In this document: one piece after another, positions 677 through 15,502 of the stretch
Layout: each line of letters starts with the position of its first letter
How positions within the stretch are numbered: position 1 is the first letter of the stretch
Virus record (IMG/VR): IMGVR_UViG_3300021961_000076
Span: 4,287 to 68,286 of that record
Strand: one strand, 5' to 3'
Length of the DNA stretch: 64,000 nt
Source of the DNA: a virus
Translations under genes and position numbers: made by a program
Notes under the pieces: model-generated
What the model was told of the DNA's origin: nothing
Seen by the model: only the letters and a program-made list of their open reading frames with translations
Databases searched by the model: none

Positions 677-3019
677 TTAGTGACCATCTCTCCAGTTTCT
701 AGAAATTTCAGGAGGTGCTTTAAGAGTTACTCCTTCAAGCTTAGTTGTGTTCTCCATAATCTCTTTAATAATAGGAGCTACAAACTCTGCCTGATCTTCT
801 GGTACGTTAATGATTAACTGGTCATGGACTTGAGCTTGAACACGGCCGTCGATCCCAAGCTCCTTCAGCTTGCGATTGATCTGTACTGCTGCCCGGTTTA
901 CGACAGCCGCTGCAAGGCTCTGCAGTTGATAGTTCAAACAGTTGTTAAGTCCATTTCGGTAGTCACGGTACCATTGCAGTACTTGATCTTTACCGTAACG
1001 TTCTGATAGATCTTTTCTAAACTTCCAGTCCATAATCTGTTCACCAAAAGTATCGTACATCTTCTTTACTTTAGGTAGGTGACGGATACGTCCTACTTTA
1101 TTTGTAATAAAGCCATGTTCCTTAACTTGCTTACGAGAGTTTAATCTCCATTGCTTAAGTTGAGGGAAGCCATTTAGATAACCTTCTACAAGTACCTCTG
1201 CTTCTTTTTGAGATATACCTAGAGTCATTCCTAGAGCATAAGCCTCCATGCCGTATGCAATTCCTAACGAATAGGCCTTAGCCTGATTACGTTTAACAGG
1301 GTCTAACTTTTTTAGGTAGTTAGGAGCTTTCTTATCTGGGGATACTCCGTCAGGGTATTTATCACGCTGCTCATCAAGCTTCTCAGTCTGAATAGCTACA
1401 GTAGAGTAGAAGTCCCATCCGTTATTAAAGATCTCTTGAAGCTTAACATCACCTGATACTGAGGCAAAGCAGTGAGGTTCTAATGATTCGTAGTCGGCAT
1501 CGATGATCTTACGTCCTTCACCTGCAGTTAAGAAGGCACGAACGATGTTAGTATACTTAACGATAATAGGAGCATCTTCACCATCTTCTTTAGGCTTAGG
1601 TAGCTGCTGGGCATCTGAACCGTAGCGTCCGGAAACAGTACCGTTCTGCTTGAAGTAGAAGTAGTAACGACCATCTTCGTGATTATCTACAAAGCGATCA
1701 ATATAAGTAGACTTAATCTTTAGAAGCTTATTATAGATGCGTAAGTTCTCAGCCCATTCATAGTCCTTAGAGAGCTCTTCGATCATATCCATATCGAACT
1801 TATCTCGACCGGACTTAGTATTAGCTCCTGATACTAGAGGTTTAATGCCCATGTAGTCAAATACTAGCTCACCTAAGTGCTTCTTAGATTGAATGTTAAT
1901 ATACTCACCATCATTCTTCTCCTTCCATAAAGCCATAGAGATTTTTAGTACCTCCATCTCATTAAGGAGATCTAATTTACCTGTGAGTAAAAACTCTCTA
2001 ACAGGTGAATCTTCTAATTCAGCCAGAGTCTTTTGGGTAATAGAGTATTTACCGGTCTTGTCAGATTTAGGCAGAGATAAAGAATATCTCATAGCTAATG
2101 TCTGTGCCCATGTACCTTTATTAGAAGGTGGGAACTCTTTTAGAGCAGTGTCTACAACCCATTCTTTACCTGCAGCTAATGCTAGGATAGAATCAAGAAC
2201 GATCTTTTTATTCTTCTGAAGGTCTTCAATGATCTCTTCTTTAGTCTGCTCTAAGAGCTCTAAGTCTAAATCTACTCCCATCTCTTCCATAGGAATAGTC
2301 ACCTCACGGTATAAAGGCATTACTTCGTCTTCAAAGAAGAACTTTTCTAGATTCTCTACTTTTAACTTATCTAGAAAATATGTACAGACACGAAGGGTTA
2401 AGTCGGTATCGGCAGCAGCATACTTAGAAAGTATATCCATGTCTGCTTTGTAGATCTCAAAGCTCTCTTTAGTCACTGAGCCTCCATTACGTTTGATAGA
2501 TTCTTTCAGTTCGATCTGCTCTTCGTTAGCAGCCTTCTCTACATCTAAACCAATATGTTCCTGGATAGAGATAGCTAAAGGTTTAAGACCGAACACTCCC
2601 ATACCTGCTCCTTCTTCCTGAACAGTATGAACTAGTAGAGCGGTATCAACCCAGAGACTATCAAGTAAGTTAATTCCGTAGAAGTTCTTAGTAAATCGGC
2701 AGTCGAATGATGCGTTGTGCATCACAAGCTTCTTACCGATTAACATACTTAAAATCTTCTTAGCAATAGCATGACATCCAATACCTTCGATAGTAAGTTC
2801 ATCTAAGGATTCATTCTCATGACTCCAAGCCATCGTCGGCATATAGAATCCGATACCAATGTCACCTGATACAGAGAAACCAACTATCTGTCCTTTTCTC
2901 ATATTCAAGCTATCAGTCTCGGTATCGTATGCAATTACGTTCGATTCCTGAATATGTTGGATAAGTAGGTTAACAGTTTCCTTATCTGTAACCGTGTAGT
3001 ATTTTTTTTCAATTGTCAT
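677..3019 (-). CDS. polA: DNA polymerase family A (3'-5' exonuclease plus polymerase)
   Basis: Exo motifs YDTET, HNASFD, YAAAD; GTVSGRY; motif A DADYESLE; motif B RNQAKAYSLGIAYG; motif C QVHDQL. Confidence 0.95.
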   Translation of the reverse strand: MTIEKKYYTVTDKETVNLLIQHIQESNVIAYDTETDSLNMRKGQIVGFSVSGDIGIGFYMPTMAWSHENESLDELTIEGIGCHAIAKKILSMLIGKKLVMHNASFDCRFTKNFYGINLLDSLWVDTALLVHTVQEEGAGMGVFGLKPLAISIQEHIGLDVEKAANEEQIELKESIKRNGGSVTKESFEIYKADMDILSKYAAADTDLTLRVCTYFLDKLKVENLEKFFFEDEVMPLYREVTIPMEEMGVDLDLELLEQTKEEIIEDLQKNKKIVLDSILALAAGKEWVVDTALKEFPPSNKGTWAQTLAMRYSLSLPKSDKTGKYSITQKTLAELEDSPVREFLLTGKLDLLNEMEVLKISMALWKEKNDGEYINIQSKKHLGELVFDYMGIKPLVSGANTKSGRDKFDMDMIEELSKDYEWAENLRIYNKLLKIKSTYIDRFVDNHEDGRYYFYFKQNGTVSGRYGSDAQQLPKPKEDGEDAPIIVKYTNIVRAFLTAGEGRKIIDADYESLEPHCFASVSGDVKLQEIFNNGWDFYSTVAIQTEKLDEQRDKYPDGVSPDKKAPNYLKKLDPVKRNQAKAYSLGIAYGMEAYALGMTLGISQKEAEVLVEGYLNGFPQLKQWRLNSRKQVKEHGFITNKVGRIRHLPKVKKMYDTFGEQIMDWKFRKDLSERYGKDQVLQWYRDYRNGLNNCLNYQLQSLAAAVVNRAAVQINRKLKELGIDGRVQAQVHDQLIINVPEDQAEFVAPIIKEIMENTTKLEGVTLKAPPEISRNWRDGH

Positions 3020-3581
3020 CTGATAGAAGATACTTCTTATTTTTCTGAAAGGCTTGAGACCATCTGTTTATCTGACTGTCTTTAGTATCAATATACTTAG
3101 ATTCGTCAAGGGTAGGCTTGATGTTAAGCTTATCACCTTTTGGTAATCCTAATGCTTCTACTTCTTCTGCTTTAAAAAGATATACGTGTTCCATTGATAA
3201 GACAGGAGAGTAAAAAAGAATATAGTTAAAAAGCAAATTTCCTTCACTATCTCGCTTACAGTTAATACTTTGAAAGGAAGCGTATTTACCATTATCTAAA
3301 TGATCTGTTGTCTTTATCTCAACTCTTATCTTACCGTCGGGACTAATAATATCTAGTCCTTTGTTAGTTCTATGTCCTATCTTAAAAGAATCTACCGGAT
3401 ACTTAAAGTACCTTTCCAGCCAATACTTAGCTATAATCTCCATAAGAAGGTACTTACCTCCGTTAGCAATTGCTTTTCTGTATTCGTACCTGTTAAAACG
3501 GTACCGGTTAAATACTACAACAGAGATACCAAAAAGCTCTTCAAAGTCGTCTTTATCAAAAAACTCGACTATATCATTCAT
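3009..3581 (-). CDS. Putative PD-(D/E)XK nuclease (restriction/homing endonuclease-like)
   Basis: Helix with Glu (LLMEIIAK) followed by GLDIISPDGKIRVEIKT, a D-x10-E-x-K pattern. Confidence 0.55.
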   Translation of the reverse strand: MNDIVEFFDKDDFEELFGISVVVFNRYRFNRYEYRKAIANGGKYLLMEIIAKYWLERYFKYPVDSFKIGHRTNKGLDIISPDGKIRVEIKTTDHLDNGKYASFQSINCKRDSEGNLLFNYILFYSPVLSMEHVYLFKAEEVEALGLPKGDKLNIKPTLDESKYIDTKDSQINRWSQAFQKNKKYLLSDDN

Positions 3582-3603: not shown

Positions 3604-3636
3604 ATAAAGATAAGAAAGGAGCCCGTAGGCTCCAAC
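3604..3636 (-). promoter_or_regulatory. Early-type promoter overlapping the intrinsic terminator of queF
   Basis: Minus strand GTTGGAGCC-TACG-GGCTCC-TTTCTTATCTTTA: a hairpin with U-tract lies inside the TTG...TATCTTTA promoter spacer. Confidence 0.6.
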
Positions 3637-4551
3637 TTATTGACGTAAAGTTTTCTTCATTCTTTTTCCCGAATCAGAAAACCACCCTGGGATCATTTCT
3701 TTATGAGTTGCTCGGATAGGATTAATGTCGAGTCCTCCACGACGTGTATATAGACATGCTACCATAAGCTTTTCTGGCTCGTAGGCTTGCATGAGATGAG
3801 TAAAGACCATCTCACAGATCTCTTCGTGGAAGTGAGATACTTGACGGTGACTAACAATATACTTAGCTAATGAAGTAAGCTTGATAGTCTTCTTACCTTC
3901 CATATGGATATAAACATCACCCCAGTCTGGTTGGTTGGTTACTCGGCAGTTACTACGTAGAAGATTAGAATGAACCTTTGTAGTAACTGAAAAAGGAAGG
4001 TCTCCTCCTACCTCTAACTGAGAAGCGTCTGAATGGAAAGCTGTAAATTCTAGCTCGTCTAGGTTAACACTTGCTGCTAGATCGGCAAAGCCATCAAAAG
4101 CATACTCTGCTCCATAATCGTTACCAAAGAACGTACAAGCAACAAAACCTCCTAGCAGTTCAGTAAGATCAGCAGATACTGTCTTTTCAATCTGCTTGAT
4201 ACATTCCTTAGCTGTTTCGCCCATTGGAGTCATATTCAAAGAGTTTAGATACAATTTGATTGACTTAGACTCAACGTGATACTCTGAATCAGCAGGACAT
4301 ACAATCTTAAGCATACCTGCTACAGGTTGTCCTTTCTTAGTGATGGCTGATACTTCATAAGCGTTCCAGCTATCTACTCCTACGAAAGGTAAGTTACCTT
4401 CTTCAATGCCGTAAGCTTCTCTGTTTAAATAACGAGGTACTGCTACTAGCAACTCTGGGTCGTAGATAGCTTTGTAGCCTTCTCCTCCTACTTTACCGAG
4501 GTGCTTATTCGCAATCTCGACAACAGCATTGTAGTTTTTTACTTCTTCCAT
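3637..4551 (-). CDS. queF: NADPH-dependent preQ0 reductase, long bimodular form
   Basis: ESKSIKLYLNS QueF motif; catalytic SNCRVTNQPDWG; FHEE; YTRRGGLDINP. Confidence 0.93.
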   Translation of the reverse strand: MEEVKNYNAVVEIANKHLGKVGGEGYKAIYDPELLVAVPRYLNREAYGIEEGNLPFVGVDSWNAYEVSAITKKGQPVAGMLKIVCPADSEYHVESKSIKLYLNSLNMTPMGETAKECIKQIEKTVSADLTELLGGFVACTFFGNDYGAEYAFDGFADLAASVNLDELEFTAFHSDASQLEVGGDLPFSVTTKVHSNLLRSNCRVTNQPDWGDVYIHMEGKKTIKLTSLAKYIVSHRQVSHFHEEICEMVFTHLMQAYEPEKLMVACLYTRRGGLDINPIRATHKEMIPGWFSDSGKRMKKTLRQ

Positions 4552-4552
4552 T

Positions 4553-5086
4553 TTATTTGATATAGTTTAAAATTTGATCTACTCGCTGCAATGGGGAGCC
4601 AGTAACAGTTAAATAATGACGGTCAGTTAAATCGAGTTGCCATTGAAACTCTTCATCAATAATCCTTCTCCAAGCTTCATCGATACTACGCTGACCATCG
4701 TCCACAGCATCGAATTCAATCGGAAAGTAAATATAATGCGTATACTCCTCCTGTACTCGCTTCCAAGTATCTTCAATAAAGTCTAAGCCTTGTTGAGATA
4801 AAGCAGGCATATGCTTTGAATATACAACTAGATCTAGATAACAACGATCTAGAATTATACTATGAGGTCTTAGTAGAGCCTCTAAGTGAAAAGAAGAGAT
4901 AGCTAACTGAGTCTCAGTAGTACCTGCTTCATTGATAGGAAAGCCAAACTTAGCAACCGTACGAGTACTCTCGTTAACAAATTGCCATTGTTGAAAACCC
5001 CTTGTAGGAAGTTTAGATTTTAGTAATTCATACACAGTAGTCTTGCCAGTACTACTAGCTCCTACTAATGCAACTCGTCTAACCAT
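4553..5086 (-). CDS. P-loop nucleotide kinase-like protein (AAA_28/dNMP kinase-like)
   Basis: N-terminal Walker A GASSTGKTT, ILDRCYLD motif, DDGQR lid. Confidence 0.75.
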   Translation of the reverse strand: MVRRVALVGASSTGKTTVYELLKSKLPTRGFQQWQFVNESTRTVAKFGFPINEAGTTETQLAISSFHLEALLRPHSIILDRCYLDLVVYSKHMPALSQQGLDFIEDTWKRVQEEYTHYIYFPIEFDAVDDGQRSIDEAWRRIIDEEFQWQLDLTDRHYLTVTGSPLQRVDQILNYIK

Positions 5087-5622
5087 AACTTATTATGTAA
5101 AAATTCACCCCACATCTCTACTGATGTGTCATGTAATATACGAAAGATATCCTTCTTAGGCAACTGTCCGTGTATGCTTTCTCTTTCCATTAACACTTCT
5201 CCTTCGTCTACTCCGGCAGTTACTTTATGAATCACACACCCAGCACTTCTATAATTACCTTCCCAAGCTCTATACTGAGGATCTTTACCTTTAAGCTCAG
5301 GGTACTTAGTTATAAGGCCTGGATGTCCGTTATATGTCTCATACTGCTTACAGACGCTCTCAGGTACAACTCTTAGCCAGCCATGCAAAGTTACGATAGG
5401 ATTTTCATATCCCATCAACAGCCAATGGTACTCATGCTCTTCAGGCTTATTTTCAGTCCAGTGAAGTAAATGAGTAGGAATATCTTGATTGATAGTTCTT
5501 AGATGAGAAGGTCGATGATTAGTAATAATCTTATTAGGCCAGCGACCTAAGATCTTACTTACCTCAACAATCTCAGATCCTGTCTGACTAAAGAATGCTA
5601 TCCACGGACGTATTGCTACCAT
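5065..5622 (-). CDS. dpdN: PurN-like formyltransferase, probable preQ1 formyltransferase (DpdN)
   Basis: NGHPGL...YPELKG, GCVIHKVTAGVDEG formyltransferase motifs; lies next to queF and the dpdA-like gene; start placed at MVAIRPW (5622). Confidence 0.8.
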   Translation of the reverse strand: MVAIRPWIAFFSQTGSEIVEVSKILGRWPNKIITNHRPSHLRTINQDIPTHLLHWTENKPEEHEYHWLLMGYENPIVTLHGWLRVVPESVCKQYETYNGHPGLITKYPELKGKDPQYRAWEGNYRSAGCVIHKVTAGVDEGEVLMERESIHGQLPKKDIFRILHDTSVEMWGEFLHNKLWLDELH

Positions 5623-6415
5623 GTGCGAACCATCTAAAACGTTGAACATTATAAATTGCCTGGGTGAGTTCCTCGCTAGTAGGAACCATATTGATCATCT
5701 CAAATAACTTAATAGAAGCTTTGTCCCATAAGCCTTGATCTGTATACGGAATATTTAGTAAGCCGTGTACTACCGGGTTAGAAGTATCTAAAGAGTAGAT
5801 CCAATCGTAATCTTTATAGAAAGCAAACTCCTGAGGAAGTCCACATCCTAGTAAGTGGTGAGGAATATCTGTGTTGATAACTCCGTCACGTAGCATCTTT
5901 CCTAATAGCATTACTCTTCCTAGCATCCAGCTAACATACTTATTAGGATGCGGTACCATCTGTTCGTAGAGACTGTAATCGAAAGAGATAGCCACCATAT
6001 CTACTTCAGCTATAGTAGTCATCCATTCGTAACAAGTAACTATCTCAGAGTAAGTCTTTCCCTGTACTACACCTATCTTCTTACTGGGTGCTGCTAAAGC
6101 GTTTGCATACTTAAAGTTCCACTCAGCCATATTGTGCATAGTACGCTTAGCATTCTCTAAAGAGTCAGGTACGATATACCAAGTAGGCTTTAGGTAGTCA
6201 ATCCAGAAAGCAAAACGATCAGAATCAAAAGCTTCTCCTAATTCAAAGATAGAGTTATCTAAAATAATCTCTCGTCCTTTATCTCGAGCTTCTATAAACT
6301 TATCTAAATACTTTTCATTCTCTTCAAAGAGATGTACTAAGGCATAATCATAGTCCGTATACTGCTGAATAGTATCAAAGCTAGCTATCGGGCTTTCGTG
6401 TGCAATCTTAACCAT
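5588..6415 (-). CDS. dpdA: TGT-fold deazaguanine transglycosylase (DpdA3-like)
   Basis: ILDNSIFE, IVPD, VVQG, HLLG and SLDTS motifs in TGT/DpdA order; no Zn-binding C-terminal domain; sits inside the Que cluster. Confidence 0.8.
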   Translation of the reverse strand: MVKIAHESPIASFDTIQQYTDYDYALVHLFEENEKYLDKFIEARDKGREIILDNSIFELGEAFDSDRFAFWIDYLKPTWYIVPDSLENAKRTMHNMAEWNFKYANALAAPSKKIGVVQGKTYSEIVTCYEWMTTIAEVDMVAISFDYSLYEQMVPHPNKYVSWMLGRVMLLGKMLRDGVINTDIPHHLLGCGLPQEFAFYKDYDWIYSLDTSNPVVHGLLNIPYTDQGLWDKASIKLFEMINMVPTSEELTQAIYNVQRFRWFAHGSNTSVDSIL

Positions 6416-6605
6416 TTATATTTCCTAAGTCGTTAAATACTTTATTCAATTCAGACATCTGTATCTGTAGTTTATCTAAATTCTCTTCAAGTTCTTTTGC
6501 AGATTTCATAGATAGAGCTTGATCAACTACCTCTAAAGGTACTACCCAACGCTCTAGATCTTCTAAATAAATCTTATGTTCTTCTACTAACTTCTTTGGG
6601 TCCAT
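6408..6605 (-). CDS. Hypothetical protein (helical)
   Basis: 65-aa ORF tightly packed in the operon. Confidence 0.6.
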   Translation of the reverse strand: MDPKKLVEEHKIYLEDLERWVVPLEVVDQALSMKSAKELEENLDKLQIQMSELNKVFNDLGNING

Positions 6606-6607
6606 TA

Positions 6608-7108
6608 TTACTTAGAGTTTTTTAGCTCTTCTTCAGTAAAGAACTGTTTAAGATTAGGTGCGAAGTAATTAATGGACTTCATAACTTTATCATCTGCCTT
6701 GCGGTAAACTACATAACGGTTACCTACCTTACGAAAATAACAATCGCCGTGTTCTTTTTCTCGTTTCTCTATAGTGTCCATTGCTTCTTGTAGAGTAGCA
6801 CAACTCTTAGACATATTCGAGGCCTGAACTTCTTTATAAGCAGGTATTAATTTATCTTTGAGTCCAAATACCATTGTAGCATTACCTACAGCTACGTAAA
6901 GTAGATCGCAGATAGCGTCTAGTACCTCTACGATATCTTTCTCTTCGATAGCGTGAGCTAGTTCGTCTGTCTCTTCCTTAATAAAGTTAACGACAAAGTC
7001 AGTTAGCTTTTTATCATTAGGAATGATAGGAGTATAGTTATTCGGCTTACCGAACGTCTTGTTGAATACTTCTACTTCATCAACAAATTTTACTCGTACT
7101 TTTTTCAT
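6608..7108 (-). CDS. All-alpha NTP pyrophosphohydrolase (MazG/PRA-PH-like), candidate dGTPase
   Basis: EETDEL...EVLDAICDLLYV and EVQASNMSK motifs. Confidence 0.85.
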   Translation of the reverse strand: MKKVRVKFVDEVEVFNKTFGKPNNYTPIIPNDKKLTDFVVNFIKEETDELAHAIEEKDIVEVLDAICDLLYVAVGNATMVFGLKDKLIPAYKEVQASNMSKSCATLQEAMDTIEKREKEHGDCYFRKVGNRYVVYRKADDKVMKSINYFAPNLKQFFTEEELKNSK

Positions 7109-7815
7109 TTACAAGAATAACCTTTTACAAATTCATAAAATTCTGCTCGTGCTGAGTCTTCTTCCATAAAGCTCTTAGATAGCTTAGATGTCTTCATAGA
7201 AGCTCCTGCATGCTTAGTACCTCGACAAGATACACAGTTGTGGGTTGCTTCTACCATTACAGCTACTCCTACATTACCCTCACACACAGTATCGACTGCG
7301 TTGTGGATAGCTACAGTAAGCTGCTCTTGAATAGCGCCTCTACGGCCAAAGTGCTCTACAATACGATTGAGCTTAGATAGACCGATTACCTTACCTCCAG
7401 GACCTGGAATGTAAGCGATATGTACTCGACCTTGAATGGTCTGGTGGTGGTGAGAACACATAGAGGTTAAAGGAATATTACCTTCGAATACAATACCGTC
7501 ATAACCATCAGCAGGGAAGGCCGTGATCTCAGGCATAGGATTGAAACGTCCTGCCCATAAGTCATTCACATACGCCTTAGCCACTCGACGAGGAGTATCT
7601 GATGAGTTAGGATCATTACGCCAATCACATCCTAGAGCATCTAGGAATTCACCAAATGCCTTAGCAGCATTCTCAATGATATTAAACCTCTCCTGGTCTG
7701 TTAAGTTCATAGAGGTCATAGAGTGAACTCGGAACTTCTCTGCTAGTTGAGCGGAGATACCATTAGCGAACCCGGCTTGAGCGAGTTCTACATCATAACG
7801 TTTCTTTTCTGCCAT
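7105..7815 (-). CDS. folE: GTP cyclohydrolase I
   Basis: TPRRVAK, SMCSHH, GLSKLNRIV, IQEQLT, HNCVSCRG. Confidence 0.96.
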   Translation of the reverse strand: MAEKKRYDVELAQAGFANGISAQLAEKFRVHSMTSMNLTDQERFNIIENAAKAFGEFLDALGCDWRNDPNSSDTPRRVAKAYVNDLWAGRFNPMPEITAFPADGYDGIVFEGNIPLTSMCSHHHQTIQGRVHIAYIPGPGGKVIGLSKLNRIVEHFGRRGAIQEQLTVAIHNAVDTVCEGNVGVAVMVEATHNCVSCRGTKHAGASMKTSKLSKSFMEEDSARAEFYEFVKGYSCK

Positions 7816-7818
7816 ATA

Positions 7819-7849
7819 ATTTGTTTTTTGAGGTGGTGCTTCGACACCT
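7819..7849 (-). ncRNA. preQ1-I riboswitch-like aptamer in the folE leader
   Basis: AGGUG-UCGAAGCAC-CACCU-CAAAAAACAAAU: 5-bp P1, loop starting UCG and ending in C, A-rich tail with a C; close to the T. tengcongensis class I aptamer; ends a few nt before the ATG. Confidence 0.7.
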
Positions 7850-7854
7850 TTTTA

Positions 7855-7885
7855 TAATATACGAAAACTATTTCAGAGTGCAAAC
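7855..7885 (-). promoter_or_regulatory. Early-type promoter for the folE unit
   Basis: Minus strand GTTTG-N-TTTTCGTATATTA immediately upstream of the aptamer. Confidence 0.65.
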
Positions 7886-8379
7886 ACATCTCTGTAATTT
7901 CTTGCATAACCTTTCTCATTATCCATTCCAAAGCCTATTACCCATTCATCATCAATAGTAAATGCATGGTATGATTTCTGTTTAGGGATAGGTGAGGTTG
8001 CTCTAATAAGCAAGCTAACAATCGAGATAGAGGCTGGATGTTTAACTTCTAGGTATTCAATTACTGCTTTCATAGTATTACCTGTATCGTAGATATCATC
8101 TACCAGATATACGTGCTTACCTTTGATAGGAGTTTCCAGATCTTTCATAATCTGAATATCTCCTTGCTTCTTTTTACCTACATAAGATTTCACTCTCATA
8201 AAGTCACACTCTACATCAATAGGCATGCTCCTAACTAGATCTGCATAGAACATAAATGCTCCGTTTAACAAACCTACCATAACTACTGGTGTTTTATCTC
8301 CTCTGTGATCATCGGCAATCTGTTTACCGATAATTTTAGTTCGGATATCAATATCCTTAGCGTTCAATAACAGTTGCAT
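7873..8379 (-). CDS. hpt: Hypoxanthine/guanine phosphoribosyltransferase
   Basis: GLLNGAFMFYADL, VKSY, PRPP loop LVDDIYDTGNT, WVIGFGMD...RN. Confidence 0.9.
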   Translation of the reverse strand: MQLLLNAKDIDIRTKIIGKQIADDHRGDKTPVVMVGLLNGAFMFYADLVRSMPIDVECDFMRVKSYVGKKKQGDIQIMKDLETPIKGKHVYLVDDIYDTGNTMKAVIEYLEVKHPASISIVSLLIRATSPIPKQKSYHAFTIDDEWVIGFGMDNEKGYARNYRDVFAL

Positions 8380-8388
8380 ATTTTGGTT

Positions 8389-9213
8389 TTAAAAATCGTA
8401 GTTAGCACCTAATGTAATAAAGTATGGGATCTCTTTTATATAACCTAGCTCTATATCCGAAACGTCATAATCAAGTGCGCTTCTTAGTTTAGTTGCAAAG
8501 GAGAATGTATCTGTAACTTTATAACCTATTGATACTCCGTAGTACAGATTCATATTAAAATCATTCCAGTACCATAAATCAATCTCATTTACCGCATCTT
8601 CATATAAGGTAAAGTAATGTGTTCGGATATCAGTTAGTAGGAATACTTCTGGTCTTAGTATCCAATGGTTTAACTCCCACTCTTTCATTCCAATCAACAT
8701 TAGACTGTAAGTTTGATTTACAGCTGCATCATAGAATTCACCACCTAATTCAAAATCATCCCAGCTATAATCATTCACAAATAAAGTATATCCAATCTTT
8801 GTCGAATTTTTTTCATACATCTGGTTAAAGTATGGGGATATAGTTAGAGCATCTGGCGTATATCCAGAATTAGATAGGGTAATTGAGTAGTTATTGGTTC
8901 TCTTTAGCCCGCTGCTAAACTCTTTAACTCTGCCGTAGTTGTATCCAACTTTACCGTATTTGAATGATGGGGTATATGAATAAAAGATTCCATTTGTATG
9001 CTTTCCACTTTCCCACTCATATGCTAAGTTGAAACTAAATATAGTAAACTCACCTAAATAACCTAATGTTATATTTGAACTACTGATGATGTCGTTGTTC
9101 AGTTCAACATAAGTTACACTAGTCAGTTCTGAGTTAGCTTCTGCTCCTTCGTTAGATTGGCCAAACACCCACCCAAAGTGTAGCAGTAGTATAAGTGTTA
9201 GTATTCTTTTCAT
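8389..9213 (-). CDS. Putative outer-membrane beta-barrel protein
   Basis: Sec signal peptide, alternating aromatic beta-strands, C-terminal beta-signal-like YFITLGANYDF. Confidence 0.65.
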   Translation of the reverse strand: MKRILTLILLLHFGWVFGQSNEGAEANSELTSVTYVELNNDIISSSNITLGYLGEFTIFSFNLAYEWESGKHTNGIFYSYTPSFKYGKVGYNYGRVKEFSSGLKRTNNYSITLSNSGYTPDALTISPYFNQMYEKNSTKIGYTLFVNDYSWDDFELGGEFYDAAVNQTYSLMLIGMKEWELNHWILRPEVFLLTDIRTHYFTLYEDAVNEIDLWYWNDFNMNLYYGVSIGYKVTDTFSFATKLRSALDYDVSDIELGYIKEIPYFITLGANYDF

Positions 9214-9216
9214 TTA

Positions 9217-9462
9217 TCAATTCATTCCACCACCTCTACCTTCGTCTTGAGTTGGTTGTGATTCTGCTTTTTGTTCTTTCTCTTGTTGTTTTACCTTTGC
9301 ATTTTCAGCTGCCTTTACTTTGGTAGTGTTTAAGGATTCTACCTTTTGAGTTTCCTTATCAGTTCTCTGAACCGATTGGGCTGGATCACCGCTAATAGGA
9401 ACTGTCACCGTACAAGCGGATAAGGTAAGTATTATTGTAGGTATAATCCAGAACTTTCTCAT
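9217..9462 (-). CDS. Small lipoprotein
   Basis: Basic N-terminus, hydrophobic stretch, lipobox LSAC; low-complexity charged tail. Confidence 0.7.
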   Translation of the reverse strand: MRKFWIIPTIILTLSACTVTVPISGDPAQSVQRTDKETQKVESLNTTKVKAAENAKVKQQEKEQKAESQPTQDEGRGGGMN

Positions 9463-10622
9463 TGAATAAGTACTTTTTCTACTCTACCGTTATTATATCT
9501 GATTACATATAATCCTTTAAGTTCGGCCCAATTTATATTTTCTCCCATATAACGACCGTTCCAATCATATACTTTGTATTGCGTATTGAAATCTGCAATA
9601 TTTTCTTCAATTCCAATTGTTGAGTTTACAATCAGAGTAACAAAGTAGTCGTTATTAGAAGAGTTACTGGAAGCTCTTAATACTCCTTTATATGTACCTA
9701 CCTGCAGGTCTGTTAAGTTCCAGGTTGTATTTGAAGCTTGAGTAACATTAACTCCTGGGAAGGTCAAGCTAGTAGAGGTGTAGTTGTTAATTAATACACT
9801 AACGTATAGCGAATCTCCATTAAGCAGGTCTTGAGTAAAAGCAACTGGAGGTACTGGTACGTTAGGAGTAGATCCTGGTTGAGTAATGTATACTTGCTGA
9901 ATTCTATTTACTCCGATCAAGCTTCCGTTTCTATACTCGCTAATTTTATACCCGGTAGCAAATTGACCATTAGTAGTTGGACCCCAAGTAATAGCTCCGT
10001 TTGCGTCTACATAGTATGTACCGTAATTACCTAGTTGAGAGAAAGGAGCTAAGGGTACAAACACTCCATTTGCATACTGATTAAGAGCGTCATCTTTTTC
10101 TACCATTACAGAATCTCCATCAGGATCTACTGCAAAAAGAATTGATGTAGCTGTATCACCAGTAACCCAGTTGATAGGAAGAGGATTTACAATGATAGGA
10201 GCCGAGTTAGGTACTGAGGATTTCTTATAATCTAATCCCATAGTAAAGCTGCTATTCATAGATGAAGCAGCGTTAGTGTGAATACCTCTACAACAGTTTG
10301 TATAAACGTATCGATAATCGCCTGCTGTTAATACTCGGTAGCCGGAATAGATTGCTACGTTAACTCCTTGCCAGGTTGAAGTAACTTGTTGAGTTAAACT
10401 CACTGTAGTATTCTGTTGATAGAACCCATTAGTAAGTTTGTACTCAGTTAAGGTTAGAGAAGTAGGTCCGCTGATACCTTGAGGGTCAGTAAACAGAGTA
10501 ACTGTAATATCTACAGTATCAGAGTATCCGCGCTGGATAGCTTGAGTATATCCTCCTAAGAGGTGTGATGCACTTAGGTTAAATCCTAATGCAAGGGTGA
10601 GTAAGGTTAGTAGTTTTTTCAT
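9459..10622 (-). CDS. Secreted beta-rich protein with a T9SS type-A-like C-terminal sorting domain
   Basis: Signal peptide, then SHLLGG and NCCR motifs seen in Bacteroidota surface proteins; NSAP/DPDGD repeat; C-terminus YKVYDWNGR...KGLYVIR...KVLIQ. Confidence 0.65.
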   Translation of the reverse strand: MKKLLTLLTLALGFNLSASHLLGGYTQAIQRGYSDTVDITVTLFTDPQGISGPTSLTLTEYKLTNGFYQQNTTVSLTQQVTSTWQGVNVAIYSGYRVLTAGDYRYVYTNCCRGIHTNAASSMNSSFTMGLDYKKSSVPNSAPIIVNPLPINWVTGDTATSILFAVDPDGDSVMVEKDDALNQYANGVFVPLAPFSQLGNYGTYYVDANGAITWGPTTNGQFATGYKISEYRNGSLIGVNRIQQVYITQPGSTPNVPVPPVAFTQDLLNGDSLYVSVLINNYTSTSLTFPGVNVTQASNTTWNLTDLQVGTYKGVLRASSNSSNNDYFVTLIVNSTIGIEENIADFNTQYKVYDWNGRYMGENINWAELKGLYVIRYNNGRVEKVLIQ

Positions 10623-11218
10623 CGAATTACGTTTCTACAATTACATTTAAAAGCTTCAAGCTCTGAGGTATCAGGCTTAACATTCTTAAAATAGTAACAT
10701 TCTCGCTTATTTCCAACTTTTAGTTCCTTATAATACCCTACTGGGATAGCAGCATTTGCAGGTACGCGGTTTGGAGTTGCTCCATACTCTACTCTGATAA
10801 AGACTTTAACTTCGTTATCTTTAGCTAATTCTCTCTCACGTACTTCCAACTTCTTCCATACTCCTCTATTAAGAGACTGTTGCTGTAGGCTAGAATTAAC
10901 ATAGGTAAAAGTACTAAGTAGCATATTACGATCGCAGTTAAAAGAGGCGGCAGGAGCCATATGACCTTTATCCCATTCATTAGCTACGTAGTCGTCATTA
11001 TCGGAAGTATGTACTTGCTTCTCTTTATAAAAGTCCATTCCTGATCTAGAGGCTGTACCTGAAGGACACATTACAGTGTAGCGGATAGAGCGAGGTCCTT
11101 CTAAGACTTCTGAGTAGTTAATAATAAAGTTAGGTGTTGTGTAATATACGCTATCTTTTAACTGTGCGTATGTGGTTACTGATAAGAAGAGCAGTAACAG
11201 AGTTGACCATTTTTTCAT
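10619..11218 (-). CDS. Exported DNA/RNA non-specific endonuclease (NucA/EndA family)
   Basis: Signal peptide; WDKGHMAPAA, Q...LNRGVWKKLE, IPVGYYK. Confidence 0.9.
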   Translation of the reverse strand: MKKWSTLLLLFLSVTTYAQLKDSVYYTTPNFIINYSEVLEGPRSIRYTVMCPSGTASRSGMDFYKEKQVHTSDNDDYVANEWDKGHMAPAASFNCDRNMLLSTFTYVNSSLQQQSLNRGVWKKLEVRERELAKDNEVKVFIRVEYGATPNRVPANAAIPVGYYKELKVGNKRECYYFKNVKPDTSELEAFKCNCRNVIR

Positions 11219-11220
11219 AA

Positions 11221-11868
11221 TTAATAATTTAGGGCTTTAGAAATAACAGGAAATTCTTCTATAAATAGTTTTTTGATTTCTTTAGCTACATCCTGAATCT
11301 CTTTCTGTGCGTGAGCGTCATCTCGGAGATCTAAGAAGTGAATCCATGAGCGGATAGAACCAGTCATGTGAATCTTAGTTTTAGTAGATAATGGTAACAC
11401 CATTCGAGCTACTTCTCTTGCTACACCTTCATCAAGGAGTCGCTTATAAAGATCTTGAGAAGCTCTGAAGTGCTTGCCTATCTGAGCTGAAGCAGCAGTA
11501 GAGTACCCGTCATAGTATACATCTGGGTTGAATATCTCAGTAGAACTTTGTCTGTTATCTTCAGCTTGCTTTCTTAACTCTACCCTCTCAAACATTCCGT
11601 CCAAGAGGTTAACATCTTGATAACGTTGACTAAATTCCTGAAAGGTAAAAGAGCGGTGACGTATTAACTGAATGCCAATTGCTTTAGAGGTTTCAATCTC
11701 TACTGACATATAACCATGCTCAAATGGAGACCAGTGCTTATGTTTGATCAGATAGTTAAGAAGCCCTTCAGGCTTTTCTACCTTATCGGTACGTTTAGAG
11801 GATACTCTAGCAATTTTAACAATTGCATTTTCGGCATCCGGTGTGACGTGGTTTAGTGTTACTTTCAT
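11221..11868 (-). CDS. thyX: Flavin-dependent thymidylate synthase
   Basis: HWSPFEH, RHRSFTFQEFSQRY, AREVARMVLP, HAQKEI. Confidence 0.96.
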   Translation of the reverse strand: MKVTLNHVTPDAENAIVKIARVSSKRTDKVEKPEGLLNYLIKHKHWSPFEHGYMSVEIETSKAIGIQLIRHRSFTFQEFSQRYQDVNLLDGMFERVELRKQAEDNRQSSTEIFNPDVYYDGYSTAASAQIGKHFRASQDLYKRLLDEGVAREVARMVLPLSTKTKIHMTGSIRSWIHFLDLRDDAHAQKEIQDVAKEIKKLFIEEFPVISKALNY

Positions 11869-12642: not shown

Positions 12643-12818
12643 ACTCGTACTCCGTAACGAAATTCGTGCTTCTCATTTTCTTTTTCTGCTCCTATACCGT
12701 CTAAGGTTAGGTAGCCTAGCTCATACCCGTAGGCACTTAAAGCAGAGATGACTCCTGCTGGGTCAACTACTTTTAAAGCCCAGAGCTGATGTAGGTTTTG
12801 TAAAAATCCGTGTGGCAT
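12639..12818 (-). CDS. Hypothetical 59-aa protein (missing from the ORF track)
   Basis: MPHGFLQNLH...EFRYGVRV*; TAATG coupling with the queE stop and ATGA overlap with the next gene. Confidence 0.6.
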   Translation of the reverse strand: MPHGFLQNLHQLWALKVVDPAGVISALSAYGYELGYLTLDGIGAEKENEKHEFRYGVRV

Positions 12819-13600
12819 TATACTTCGCGTTTAGTGTCAAAGGCAATGATGTGTTCACGGCCTGTAAAATTATAATAGTTATCAGTACACCATTGTATTA
12901 CCATTGGGTAAACTCTGATGAGTTCTTCTCTGTTATCTCCAGGAGGCATAATCCAGATCTTATCTTTAGGTACTTCTAACTCGTCCATGAAGGCACGAAT
13001 CTCATCCCAGGTGTCAGGCATCTCTACCGGATTAACAACCACCTTCATATGGTAGTCTGAATGGTAAGTCATAGACTGCTTGATAGACTCTTTGTTAAGC
13101 CTAAAGCGGTTATGGGTATCAATAAAACGCTGATCTACAACAGACCCAAGAGGCGTAACTGCACCAAGTACAGGAACAGAATTGCTGAACTTAGGACTGA
13201 AGCTAATAAGACCAATAGGGTAATCTGTTTCCAGAAAGGCCGATCCTTCAGTCTCGATAGTAATAACAATACCCCTTTCATTAGCAAAATGTGTTAATTC
13301 ATTTACAATAGCTGGGTGCATGGTAGGTGAACCTCCTGTTAGCATCATCTCCTTAATCTCAGGATGTGCATCATAAATGTCTACGATGTCCTGAAATGAG
13401 TATTTACCTTTCTCTGGGTGAATACTTGTGTACCAGCTATCACACCATCCTCCTTCTCCGAAGTAACAGCGGTGAGTACAGCCTGTAGTACGTACAGCAA
13501 CAGTAGGTCTACCGGCACGGCTACCTTCTGATTGTACGCATGTGTAAAGTTCTACGATAGGTAGAGTCTTACTATAGTCTTCAATTCTCTTAAGCGGCAT
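12818..13600 (-). CDS. queE: 7-carboxy-7-deazaguanine synthase (radical SAM)
   Basis: ELYTCVQSEG..AG.PTV.VR, GCTHRC-x7-CD, LTGGSP, IETEG, SPK; start placed at MPLKR. Confidence 0.92.
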   Translation of the reverse strand: MPLKRIEDYSKTLPIVELYTCVQSEGSRAGRPTVAVRTTGCTHRCYFGEGGWCDSWYTSIHPEKGKYSFQDIVDIYDAHPEIKEMMLTGGSPTMHPAIVNELTHFANERGIVITIETEGSAFLETDYPIGLISFSPKFSNSVPVLGAVTPLGSVVDQRFIDTHNRFRLNKESIKQSMTYHSDYHMKVVVNPVEMPDTWDEIRAFMDELEVPKDKIWIMPPGDNREELIRVYPMVIQWCTDNYYNFTGREHIIAFDTKREV

Positions 13601-14048
13601 AGATTGCTGAGTTTTTGTGGTTTTCCATAAATTTAACTTTAACAACCTTTACGCGACCTTCAGTCTCTAGTTGTACGAAATCGTTTAGCTTGTGGTAAAG
13701 ATATTCTGCAAATTTCTCTGCACCTACTGCCGGTATTACTCTTAATTGAATAATACCTCTAGCGTCTAAATCTACAAAGTCTGACATAGCAGGGTCGTCT
13801 TCTGATACTACGACAGTATGATCAAACATATACTCCATCCACTCTTTAGGTTGACGTCCTTCAATAAGGTTATTAGCACGCTTCATACCTCCGAAGTCCC
13901 ATACCCAGTTTCGATGATCTAAGTCACCTTCAAACGTTACTTCAAACTCTACGTCGTAACCGTGAAGATACTGACAGTGAGTCGTATTTGCTCTCCATTG
14001 ACGGAAGCAAGTACTAAATCCGTCAAACTTCTTTCTACTCTTATACAT
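13590..14048 (-). CDS. queD: 6-carboxy-tetrahydropterin synthase
   Basis: HCQYLHGY, WVWDFG, FDHT, GAEKFA; start placed at MYKSRK. Confidence 0.9.
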   Translation of the reverse strand: MYKSRKKFDGFSTCFRQWRANTTHCQYLHGYDVEFEVTFEGDLDHRNWVWDFGGMKRANNLIEGRQPKEWMEYMFDHTVVVSEDDPAMSDFVDLDARGIIQLRVIPAVGAEKFAEYLYHKLNDFVQLETEGRVKVVKVKFMENHKNSAIYAA

Positions 14049-14304
14049 CTTCTGTAAAGTTTTTATATTGTTCAATATAATGATTTAAAGGCTTAGCTCC
14101 AACTGTACGAGCAAACTCTTTTCCGGACTCGTCTACCAGTACGACTGTTGGTACACTACGGACAGTATATTCCATTGTTAGGAGCTCTTCAGTATCGATA
14201 TTAATCTTCTCTACTGCAATTCCTTGCTCTTTTACTTTCTCCATTGTTGGACCTAACATTCGGCAAGGTCCGCACCAAGGGGCGCTAAAATACAAATACT
14301 TCAT
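14041..14304 (-). CDS. trxA: Thioredoxin
   Basis: WCGPC active site and VRSVPT cis-Pro loop. Confidence 0.93.
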   Translation of the reverse strand: MKYLYFSAPWCGPCRMLGPTMEKVKEQGIAVEKINIDTEELLTMEYTVRSVPTVVLVDESGKEFARTVGAKPLNHYIEQYKNFTEDV

Positions 14305-14611: not shown

Positions 14612-14651
14612 TAATATAAGAATAAATAGGGAGGGAGACAAGCTCCCCCCT
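14612..14651 (-). promoter_or_regulatory. Early-type promoter overlapping a GC-rich terminator-like hairpin after queC
   Basis: Minus strand GGGGGAG-CTTGT-CTCCCTC...TTCTTATATTAG. Confidence 0.55.
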
Positions 14652-14653
14652 AA

Positions 14654-15502
14654 TTAATTTGCGTGTGCTGCTAAAACTTTTTCAACATGCTCACGTGCTA
14701 CCTCCCAGCTTACCGGGCCGGTCTCATCAGCGTACGCTACAGGGTCAGGTCGTCCTAGCTTAATAAAAGCTTCAATACGCTCTACTGAAGAGGCTGATTT
14801 GTAGTCTGAGTACCAAGTCCAGGCATTAGTCTCTGGACGGTGATAGTACTTGATTGGTTTGTAAGAGGTGTTAGTACGCTTATAAACTTCATCAAAGTCT
14901 ATTCCTAGCTTCTCACACAATACCAATCCGTCTTCTAGAATAGTAAACTTATCACCTTCCAAATAAGGAGTCCAATAAGATACCCGATCGCTATCCCAGT
15001 TACCCACTCTAAAGGCGTGATCGTCTGCGTCACGGAACTCTTGACGGCAGTCCGGATAGATTGCATGGTCTCCTGCATGGATACCAAGAGCGATTGAAGT
15101 TTCTTCCTGAGTTTCATTTGCAATAGAAAGTGCTATAGCTTGTGTAATAGAGCTGAAGATTTTGTTTCGGTTCGGTACAACAGTAGCTTTCATATTCTCT
15201 TCTGCGTAATGACCTTCAGGTACTTCAGCACCACCTGTTACTAGAGCCGAGTTGAGCAGATCAACTAAACCATCGAGCTTAATAACTCGGTAGTTTACTT
15301 TACATCCACCGTAACAATCATTCTCGTCACAGTTGCGATTTAGATAATCAACCAATGATTGAGCTCTTTCAAGTTCTACTCTGTGCTTTTGACCGTAGTC
15401 AAATGATACTGCGGTTACAGTATCGAATTCATTTAATGCTTTTAAAAGCAAAGTAGAGGAGTCCATCCCTCCTGAAAGACTAACAACAACGTGTTTTGCC
15501 AT
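14654..15502 (-). CDS. queC: 7-cyano-7-deazaguanine synthase (variant lacking the Zn-binding Cys)
   Basis: SGGMDS, FDYGQKH..E, VVPNRN, GDHAIYPDCR; Zn-cysteine positions read TSY...DYKSASSVER. Confidence 0.93.
   Translation of the reverse strand: MAKHVVVSLSGGMDSSTLLLKALNEFDTVTAVSFDYGQKHRVELERAQSLVDYLNRNCDENDCYGGCKVNYRVIKLDGLVDLLNSALVTGGAEVPEGHYAEENMKATVVPNRNKIFSSITQAIALSIANETQEETSIALGIHAGDHAIYPDCRQEFRDADDHAFRVGNWDSDRVSYWTPYLEGDKFTILEDGLVLCEKLGIDFDEVYKRTNTSYKPIKYYHRPETNAWTWYSDYKSASSVERIEAFIKLGRPDPVAYADETGPVSWEVAREHVEKVLAAHAN

Follow-up and report, generated by a model that had tools for sequence, protein, structure and literature searches.

Linkage of phage DpdA3 to nucleotide kinases and pyrophosphatases suggests a nucleotide-level route to 7-deazaguanine DNA

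In the DNA of Flavobacterium phage immuto_2-6A neither deoxyguanosine (dG) nor dPreQ1 was detectable, and fdPreQ1 stood in place of G (Cui 2023, NAR, PMC10516641). With both nucleosides missing, replacement and formylation must both be complete. The Campylobacter phage CP220 and Cellulophaga phage phiST genomes are also reported to be completely modified, and cells infected with CP220 contained the ADG nucleoside in their cytoplasm (Cui 2023, PMC10516641). DpdA3, the enzyme credited with the exchange in these phages, could not be made active in the authors' E. coli DNA-modification model (Cui 2023, PMC10516641). Described here is a DpdA3 cluster from the IMG/VR virus record IMGVR_UViG_3300021961_000076 (68,286 nt, with an estimated completeness of 42%), of which 64 kb were analysed (positions 4,287 to 68,286 of the record; hereafter the window). 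The new observation is that a nucleotide kinase accompanies DpdA3 in nearly every case and a pyrophosphatase of deoxynucleoside triphosphates (dNTPs) in most. This linkage suggests that free nucleotides receive the new base prior to DNA copying.

Gene identities in the window were taken from open reading frame (ORF) calls together with Pfam, PHROGs and NCBIfam scans. A preliminary description of positions 3637-8379 had named DpdA3, DpdN, a kinase, a MazG-type NTPase, FolE, QueF and a hypoxanthine phosphoribosyltransferase (HPRT). ORF calls and family scans place every one of these genes where it had been put, and the gene content of the region, in which every ORF lies on the minus strand, is confirmed. 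PolA does lie downstream, as that description had it, but it is not directly contiguous with the operon, and QueE, QueD and QueC fall outside the region. Megablast found nothing matching the region among phage records, and protein-level searches were required.

The closest described relative, immuto_2-6A, has the same gene order, PRT-FolE-...-NTPase-small ORF-DpdA3-DpdN-kinase-QueF-...-PolA (PRT, phosphoribosyltransferase), with identities of 66% for DpdA3, 58% for DpdN, 64% for the kinase, 57% for MazG, 76% for FolE, 66% for QueF and 74% for PolA. The two loci differ in that the window encodes a PRT of the hypoxanthine-guanine type (HGPRT) where immuto has a 131-aa PRT, and ThyX where immuto has ThyA; ORFs of 274, 81 and 387 aa are additional in the window, and immuto's DUF4494 ORF is missing from it. 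By order and identity the cluster is an immuto-type DpdA3/DpdN cassette, which would replace genomic G by 7-(formylamino)methyl-7-deazaguanine. In CP220 (Campylobacter Firehammervirus), as in the window, the neighbours of DpdA3 include a P-loop kinase as well as an NTP phosphohydrolase (HD-AAA_33, AAA_28), and in phiST they include MazG and AAA_18. Unlike the window, CP220 and phiST make dADG and dDG as final bases and have no QueF and no DpdN.

Outside the DpdA3 group, bacterial DpdA/DpdB and the DpdA1 of phage 9g share with DpdA3 the superfamily, three catalytic Asp and preQ0 supply genes. Bacterial DpdA (bDpdA), unlike DpdA3, builds its DNA surface from a 128-residue Ins8 and a Zn site, and it depends on the ParB-fold protein DpdB. 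DpdA1 loci, unlike those of DpdA3, are without kinase and NTPase neighbours, and DpdA1 modifies 0.1-30% of G (Cui 2023, PMC10516641). The logic proposed below for DpdA3 is shared with the 2-aminoadenine (dZ) system (PurZ, MazZ, DatZ), where the canonical dNTP is taken to the monophosphate (dNMP), converted, re-phosphorylated and polymerised, with complete replacement. The same monophosphate-level logic underlies the 5-hydroxymethylcytosine of T4, with its dCTPase, dCMP hydroxymethylase and gp1 dNMP kinase. Unlike in the PurZ and T4 systems, the conversion proposed here is an exchange of the base by an enzyme with the fold of tRNA-guanine transglycosylase (TGT), not chemistry on the attached base, and the released base would be recycled via the PRT; the window cassette has no homology to PurZ or dCMP hydroxymethylase. 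A dZ route that starts from dGMP has been described (PMC12783734).

A modified dGTP had been suggested earlier: its use by the polymerase was proposed for Campylobacter phages by Crippen 2019, as cited in Hutinet 2019. The post-replicative model was still cited in December 2025, with 7-deazaguanine as the textbook nucleic-acid-level case (PMC12783734). The terms "kinase" and "phosphoribosyl" occur nowhere in the main text of Cui 2023, where MazG is named only for phiST (PMC10516641), and in a literature search that covered few subscription journals no paper was found that proposes a role for DpdA3 at the nucleotide level.

Kinases and pyrophosphatases beside DpdA3

The surroundings of DpdA3 were surveyed in 80 close and 80 divergent DpdA3 loci and in phiST-like loci, with ORFs called and labelled by iterated hidden Markov models (HMMs). 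Kinase counts were restricted to the 108 loci in which DpdA3 has 3 kb or more on each side, and to genes on the same strand within 3 kb. A kinase-type gene was found in 103 of these loci: 93 have the AAA_28-type kinase of the window (K28), one K28 and, in addition, an HD-AAA_33 fusion (CP220), six AAA_18, two DUF3310 and one a Bacillus phage P-loop protein. The median gap between DpdA3 and K28 is 566 nt. In the five exceptions a kinase lies elsewhere on the contig (AAA_28 in four contigs, at 56-68 bits, and DUF3310 in one, at 46.7 bits). When DpdA3 proteins are clustered at 70% identity, 31 clusters include a full locus, and a kinase is present in 28 of these. Published phages show the same arrangement, with a P-loop protein beside DpdA3 in immuto, CP220, phiST, Chryseobacterium phage MA9V-3 and Bacillus phage BSP7, and P-loop kinases are found beside DpdA3 in four distant lineages (immuto, CP220, phiST/MA9V-3 and Bacillus BSP7). 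The phiST protein, CGPG_00066, matches AAA_18 at 29.8 bits (cut-off 29.4).

Three unrelated kinase types, AAA_28, AAA_18 and DUF3310, substitute for each other beside DpdA3. A DUF3310 protein of 87-122 aa replaces K28 in the slot between DpdN and QueF in 11 loci; four of these proteins were scanned against Pfam, and all four matched at 34.9-38.5 bits (cut-off 24). T7 gp1.7, which is annotated as a nucleotide kinase and matches DUF3310 at 81.5 bits, phosphorylates dTMP and dGMP (PMC11897194; PMC9339283). In the DpdA3 representative P0234 the transglycosylase and DUF3310 are fused, and in four of the six AAA_18 loci the kinase is fused to DpdL, a QueD paralogue. HMMs of DpdL and AAA_18 both match single ORFs of 304-322 aa at the latter loci (L088:4082-4996; L089, L090, L091:2489-3457), which look like fusions, in phiST-like phages, of a base-tailoring enzyme (the proposed CDG decarboxylase) with a kinase. 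The unit can also stand by itself: DpdA3-K28-QueF lies alone between opposite-strand genes in about 15 loci, and on one 93-kb contig QueC is more than 70 kb away from it.

The control consisted of 96 loci around relatives of the phage 9g DpdA1, of which 94 had a recognisable DpdA1 ORF and 77 had at least 3 kb on each side. A K28, AAA_18 or DUF3310 match within 3 kb was found at one of these 77 loci, as against 103 of 108 for DpdA3 (Fisher p = 1.2e-44), and counted by cluster at 70% identity the kinase is present in 1 of 40 DpdA1 as against 28 of 31 DpdA3 clusters (Fisher p = 2.6e-15). One generic test applied to both sets, which looked within 3 kb for a small ORF having a P-loop at its N-terminus, was positive at none of the 77 DpdA1 loci and at 94 of the 108 DpdA3 loci. 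Over the whole of the fetched control stretches, any kinase match occurred in 3 of 94 loci, two of the three coming from one contig, and the phage 9g record has no kinase in its cluster. Together the counts argue strongly that the association of the kinase with DpdA3 is far above chance and is specific to DpdA3 relative to DpdA1.

K28 is proposed to be the kinase for the modified dNMP or deoxynucleoside. Residues G9, G14, K15 and T17 (the GxxxxGKT P-loop), R42, R81, D85, R133 and R168 are invariant in 63 sequences. The AlphaFold2 (AF2) model (pLDDT 94.4) has, among the Foldseek matches listed, the NadR ribosylnicotinamide kinase (TMq 0.75), dAK, dCK, dGK and Tmk, all at probability 1.00, and Dm-dNK, the uncharacterised YorR and the cytidine kinase AbmG are on the same list; the top matches listed are nearly all kinases of nucleosides or nucleotides, and no motor, translocase or DNA-dependent ATPase is among them. 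The fold search was the only informative one, phmmer of the kinase against PDB having returned nothing. An assignment of K28 to Tmk, the thymidylate kinases, was rejected on its scores (PF02223, 18.6 bits against a cut-off of 27; TIGR00041, 18.1 against 83.25). In the Streptomyces phage records listed, K28 kinases mostly come right after a methyltransferase gene (e.g. L085, Mildred21, 9001-9621).

The second partner is an NTP pyrophosphatase. In the MazG-type protein of the window E45, E46, E49 ... E61, D64 and D68 are invariant (14 sequences), and EExxE...ExxD is the acidic metal motif of the MazG/HisE all-alpha pyrophosphohydrolases; neither the protein nor the 14-sequence profile found an informative relative in PDB. 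The MazG-type gene is present in 76 of 82 close loci. Where DpdA3 is flanked by 4.5 kb or more on each side (100 loci), 75 loci have an NTP pyrophosphatase of one of three folds (MazG, dUTPase/DCD-like or HD), with examples confirmed by Pfam, and the same HMMs gave no match among the ORFs of the DpdA1 control. The preliminary description had named co-occurrence of its genes with dpdA3 as a check of its reading, and these surveys bear the co-occurrence out for both kinase and NTPase. The MazG-type enzyme is the proposed catalyst of the step from dGTP to dGMP.

The transglycosylase and the formyltransferase

The DpdA3 of the window is 66.2% identical to immuto gp206 over 97% of the query and 36-38% identical to Campylobacter phage homologues (named CP220 gp056); with the window protein as query, the phiST DpdA3 falls below tblastn detection. 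The family is large, with 4195 relatives among 90%-identity clusters and 1479 representatives at 50% identity, and occurs in at least 563 IMG/VR viral stretches. A phiST DpdA3 query finds only four IMG/VR relatives, and the DpdA3-like protein of BSP7 finds none there.

DpdA3 is a minimal TGT-fold transglycosylase. Its AF2 model (pLDDT 96.3) aligns with Z. mobilis TGT over 233 residues at Z 18.0 and a root-mean-square deviation of 3.1 A, and Foldseek matches it to TGT with E = 3.4e-8 and TMq 0.62. The roles of the DpdA active-site residues as acid/base, in base recognition and as nucleophile are given by Gedara 2023. In an alignment of 67 DpdA3 sequences D53, D84 and D210 are invariant, and the D210 segment aligns, weakly (E = 0.17), with the nucleophile region of Salmonella DpdA 7ui4. 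The roles of D53 and D84 we take from motif similarity to TGT. By alignment, then, DpdA3 appears to keep all three catalytic Asp of TGT. The Zn motif CXCX2CX22H, which is conserved in bDpdA and TGT and there contributes with Ins8 to the surface for DNA or RNA, is absent from the DpdA3 alignment, in which just two columns reach at least 50% Cys, neither forming the motif, and only 65 residues follow D210, with no large Ins8 insertion. This absence is a trait of the DpdA3 subfamily, not an argument against its membership of the TGT/DpdA superfamily.

Some DpdA3 representatives are long (P0126, 586 aa; P0131, 475 aa; P0257, 419 aa). In P0131 a NUMOD3 motif follows the DpdA3 domain, perhaps through read-through or through fusion to a homing endonuclease; P0126 is extended at its N-terminus by 317 aa, which match no family. 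On one viral contig a protein of Vut_1 (PF02592, 82.2 bits; L138:5277-5930), the YhhQ family of queuosine-precursor transporters, lies directly 5' of DpdA3.

DpdN is 58% identical to immuto gp204, the named DpdN (YP_010114479.1). The catalytic residues of PurN are N-x-H ... D, and the "NGHP" and "VDEG" of DpdN line up with the "NIHP" and "DEG" of PurN, in which these residues lie; the N-terminal, GAR-phosphate-binding part of PurN has no alignment to DpdN. As called, the DpdN ORF shares 62 nt (5588-5649, minus strand) with the 3' end of dpdA3, so its true start may be an internal ATG; alternatively, the overlap may serve translational coupling. In P0211 and P0228 DpdA3 and DpdN are fused.

A candidate nucleotide-level route and its competitors

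The best reading of the cassette is a nucleotide-level, pre-replicative route to formyl-preQ1 DNA, which we regard as moderately likely and which contradicts the published post-replicative model. In this route the MazG-type enzyme would split dGTP to dGMP, both removing the canonical triphosphate and supplying the acceptor, and DpdA3 would put preQ1 or formyl-preQ1 in place of the guanine in dGMP (or in deoxyguanosine). DpdN would formylate the aminomethyl group with 10-formyl-tetrahydrofolate, before or just after the base swap. The dedicated kinase would then phosphorylate the product of DpdA3 and DpdN, host NDP kinase would finish the triphosphate, and the phage PolA would incorporate the modified dNTP, while the PRT would turn the released guanine to GMP, which as GTP would feed FolE. 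It is from the observed gene identities, folds, linkage, fusions and control that we infer the substrates of DpdA3, the kinase, the NTPase and the PRT alike. Such a route would explain the complete replacement and formylation in immuto, the failure of DpdA3 in the E. coli model and the free ADG nucleoside in CP220 infection. In its fullest form, which seems to us evenly poised between right and wrong, DpdA3 would be the first TGT-superfamily enzyme to exchange bases on a free deoxynucleotide (dGMP, or deoxyguanosine) and not on a nucleic acid, and with kinase, dGTP pyrophosphatase and PRT would form a closed pre-replicative cycle from the G pool to a 7-deazaguanine dNTP pool.

The published model sees in DpdA3 a very efficient DNA-guanine transglycosylase that puts preQ1 in place of G in polymerised DNA, with formylation by DpdN taking place in the DNA or at the level of the free base; the P-loop or DUF3310 protein would be a DpdB-like NTP-dependent helper or a general dNMP kinase, MazG would do house-cleaning and the PRT would salvage guanine. 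It was stated by the authors who measured the DNA and, as said above, is still being cited (December 2025, PMC12783734). The TGT fold of DpdA3 with all three Asp agrees with it, the full catalytic set fitting a polymer substrate equally well, and every DpdA assayed to date acts on DNA. Because bDpdA, acting on DNA, requires ATP hydrolysis by DpdB, an NTP-using partner alone is no proof of a nucleotide route. Pfam finds a canonical Tmk above cut-off in none of five DpdA3 phage genomes, and K28 could for that reason be a general dNMP/dTMP kinase; K28 relatives of about 30% identity also occur in 83 Streptomyces phage records, none of which has a DpdA3 match.

These points weigh against the nucleotide-level route, and they are joined by several that concern the survey and the proteins themselves. 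The short DUF3310 proteins span just the C-terminal domain of gp1.7, and the DUF3310 family also includes SaV, of unknown function. One quarter of the loci surveyed for pyrophosphatases (25 of 100) have none within about 6 kb. Since a large share of the loci are related or lie on a shared contig, which inflates the locus counts, the cluster counts are the fairer ones, and the control is one of DpdA1 only, with DpdA2, DpdA4 and bDpdA outside the sample. Two features of DpdA3 were tried and set aside as signs against DNA binding: the loss of the Zn and Ins8 elements is given little weight because the alignment of the DNA-acting DpdA1 is also without CXCX2C, and net charge and isoelectric point do not discriminate, the median charge being -8 for DpdA3 and -8 for the 9g DpdA1.

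Even so, the published model appears to us a possible but rather doubtful account of the cassette, in view of what it leaves unexplained. It gives no reason why three unrelated kinase types, one of them a dGMP/dTMP kinase domain, should interchange beside DpdA3, why kinase-type domains should be fused both to DpdA3 and to DpdL, why 76 of 77 DpdA1 loci should be without such a gene within 3 kb, or why the DpdA3-kinase-QueF unit should move apart from the preQ0 genes. By its model the kinase is akin to small-molecule kinases and not to DNA-dependent ATPases, and DpdB, with its ParB fold, is unrelated to it. Complete replacement and complete formylation would, as a general rule, also be unusual for post-replicative chemistry.

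Mere synteny, in which kinase, NTPase and PRT would be ordinary nucleotide-metabolism genes co-located in a replication module, is improbable. The cassette does sit in a module of replication and nucleotide genes with ThyX, an endonuclease, ribonucleotide reductase (RNR) and PolA, and most of the sampled loci come from related phages. Yet the linkage holds in 28 of 31 clusters and in four unrelated lineages, with the fold of the kinase varying, in fused proteins and where three-gene operons stand alone, and DpdA1 cassettes also adjoin polymerase genes yet are without kinase and NTPase.

The PRT calls for separate treatment. HGPRTs are the best PDB matches of the window enzyme (E = 1e-30), and it carries the loop DDIYDTG for binding phosphoribosyl pyrophosphate (PRPP), a D-D-I-x-D-T-G loop being common to both PRT forms. 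The Asp of the HGPRT PRPP loop acts on purine N7, and 7-deazapurines are without N7. Upstream of FolE the HGPRT type stands in 12 of 81 immuto-lineage loci and the 131-aa PRT, which looks unrelated, in 57, never both together, and the remaining 12 loci end short of this position. A PRT is therefore present in 69 of the 69 loci that reach so far, which implies that PRT activity is selected. Neither PRT has a homologue on the fetched stretches of the CP220, phiST, MA9V-3 and BSP7 loci, and none is labelled in the minimal DpdA3-kinase-QueF operons. Because the window enzyme keeps its HGPRT features, guanine salvage is likelier than base loading, and the PRT most likely recycles released guanine to GMP, and so to GTP for FolE. 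The preliminary description had offered the HPRT as a loader of the deazapurine base; an HGPRT-like score, the retained Asp of DDIYDTG, a presence in only 12 of 81 loci and the alternative 131-aa PRT in 57 all speak against that role. Its pre-replicative reading thus keeps kinase and NTPase as members of the DpdA3 system and probably loses the HPRT as base loader. A ribonucleotide route driven by the PRT, which would couple preQ0, preQ1 or formyl-preQ1 to PRPP for the kinase to carry to the diphosphate and RNR to the deoxy form, leaving DpdA3 a side role (e.g. in tRNA or repair), could call on the constant place of the PRT directly 5' of FolE and on the RNR of the window, but is improbable given the HGPRT-like score, the N7-directed loop Asp of both forms, the loci and minimal operons without a PRT, and the fact that the universal marker is DpdA3, not PRT.

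Cluster layout and implications

The features of the window are collected in Table 1. QueF is the last gene of its unit and was seen in 68 of 82 related loci; its TIGR03138 score of 248.5 bits is under the cut-off of 293.45. PolA, downstream, is parted from QueF by the 190-aa ORF and a terminator-like hairpin. GC-rich, T-tailed hairpins lie directly 3' of both the QueF and the QueC stops, and the consensus scan found 23 terminator-like sites in all where 8.9 were expected from shuffles; the promoter scan was not above chance (39 observed, 45.3 expected). The hairpins suggest separate transcription units, which would be QueC, the block ending with QueF, and the 190-aa ORF with PolA.

Table 1. 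Features of the 64-kb window around the DpdA3 cassette, with the scan results on which each assignment rests
Feature	Position	Strand	Evidence
RNR large subunit	19736-21103	-	PF02867, three adjoining matches within one 604-aa frame
QueC (preQ0 synthase)	14654-15502	-	Pfam QueC 127.7 bits
Hairpin, GC-rich, T-tailed, directly 3' of QueC stop	14630-14650	-	
QueD (PTPS family)	13590-14075	-	Pfam PTPS 58.5 bits
QueE (radical SAM 7-carboxy-7-deazaguanine synthase)	12818-13645	-	Pfam Radical_SAM 32.1 bits; 67% identity to immuto region annotated QueE
ThyX	11221-11868	-	Pfam Thy1
Endonuclease_NS protein	10619-11218	-	Pfam
Three family-less ORFs, 387, 81 and 274 aa	9459-10622, 9217-9462, 8389-9213	-	No match in Pfam, PHROGs or NCBIfam
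HGPRT-like PRT	7873-8379	-	TIGR01203 149 bits (cut-off 150)
FolE (GTP cyclohydrolase I, first preQ0-synthesis step)	7105-7815	-	Pfam GTP_cyclohydroI 147.4 bits
MazG/HisE-type all-alpha NTP pyrophosphohydrolase	6608-7108	-	Pfam PRA-PH 44.9 bits (cut-off 21.3); phrog_671
65-aa acidic helical ORF	6408-6605	-	No match in family scans
DpdA3, 275 aa	5588-6415	-	No Pfam match; 66% identity to immuto gp206
DpdN (PurN-like formyltransferase)	5065-5649	-	Pfam Formyl_trans_N 41.4 bits
P-loop kinase (K28)	4553-5086	-	Pfam AAA_28 51.7 bits; phrog_2107
QueF (bimodular NADPH-dependent preQ0 reductase, preQ0 to preQ1)	3637-4551	-	QueF_N 106.9 + QueF 70.2 bits
Terminator-like hairpin, T-rich tail, right after QueF stop	3618-3633	-	Consensus pattern match only
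190-aa ORF	3009-3581	-	No family match
PolA (family A polymerase + 3'-5' exonuclease)	677-3019	-	DNA_pol_A 198.6 bits, DNA_pol_A_exo1 47.6 bits

The 65-aa ORF and the start of dpdA3 have 8 nt in common. Most immuto-lineage loci have a comparable ORF of 57-76 aa immediately 5' of DpdA3; these ORFs share the pattern "..H K v Y v e ... M V P L S v A .." and may encode a small subunit or regulator. Relatives of the 387-aa ORF were seen in 4 of 82 related loci and of the 274-aa ORF in none, for which reason the three ORFs of 274, 81 and 387 aa between the PRT and Endonuclease_NS genes are taken as a clade-specific insertion. ThyX is present in only 6 of the 82 related loci, and the annotated enzyme of immuto_2-6A is ThyA; within the lineage one type of thymidylate synthase has therefore taken the place of the other. 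A FolE2-type GTP cyclohydrolase (PF02649, 193.9 bits; L099:4955-5920) takes the place of FolE on one contig. Nowhere in the 68-kb record is there a match to the nucleoside diphosphate kinase (NDK) or Tmk families.

The class of enzyme credited with complete post-replicative replacement of G is thus hardly ever found without a nucleotide kinase and mostly has a dNTP pyrophosphatase too, and the partially modifying DpdA1 lacks both kinase and pyrophosphatase. The disputed question of whether fully 7-deazaguanine-substituted genomes are made before or after replication becomes directly testable, with three proteins named for assay. If the nucleotide-level route is true, it would account for the inactivity of DpdA3 in DNA-modification assays in E. 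coli, and fully substituted genomes, whether with fdPreQ1, dADG or dDG, would be made by polymerisation. Base exchange on a mononucleotide would then be a new enzymatic route to hypermodified dNTPs, and would be useful for the enzymatic synthesis of 7-deaza-dGTP analogues.

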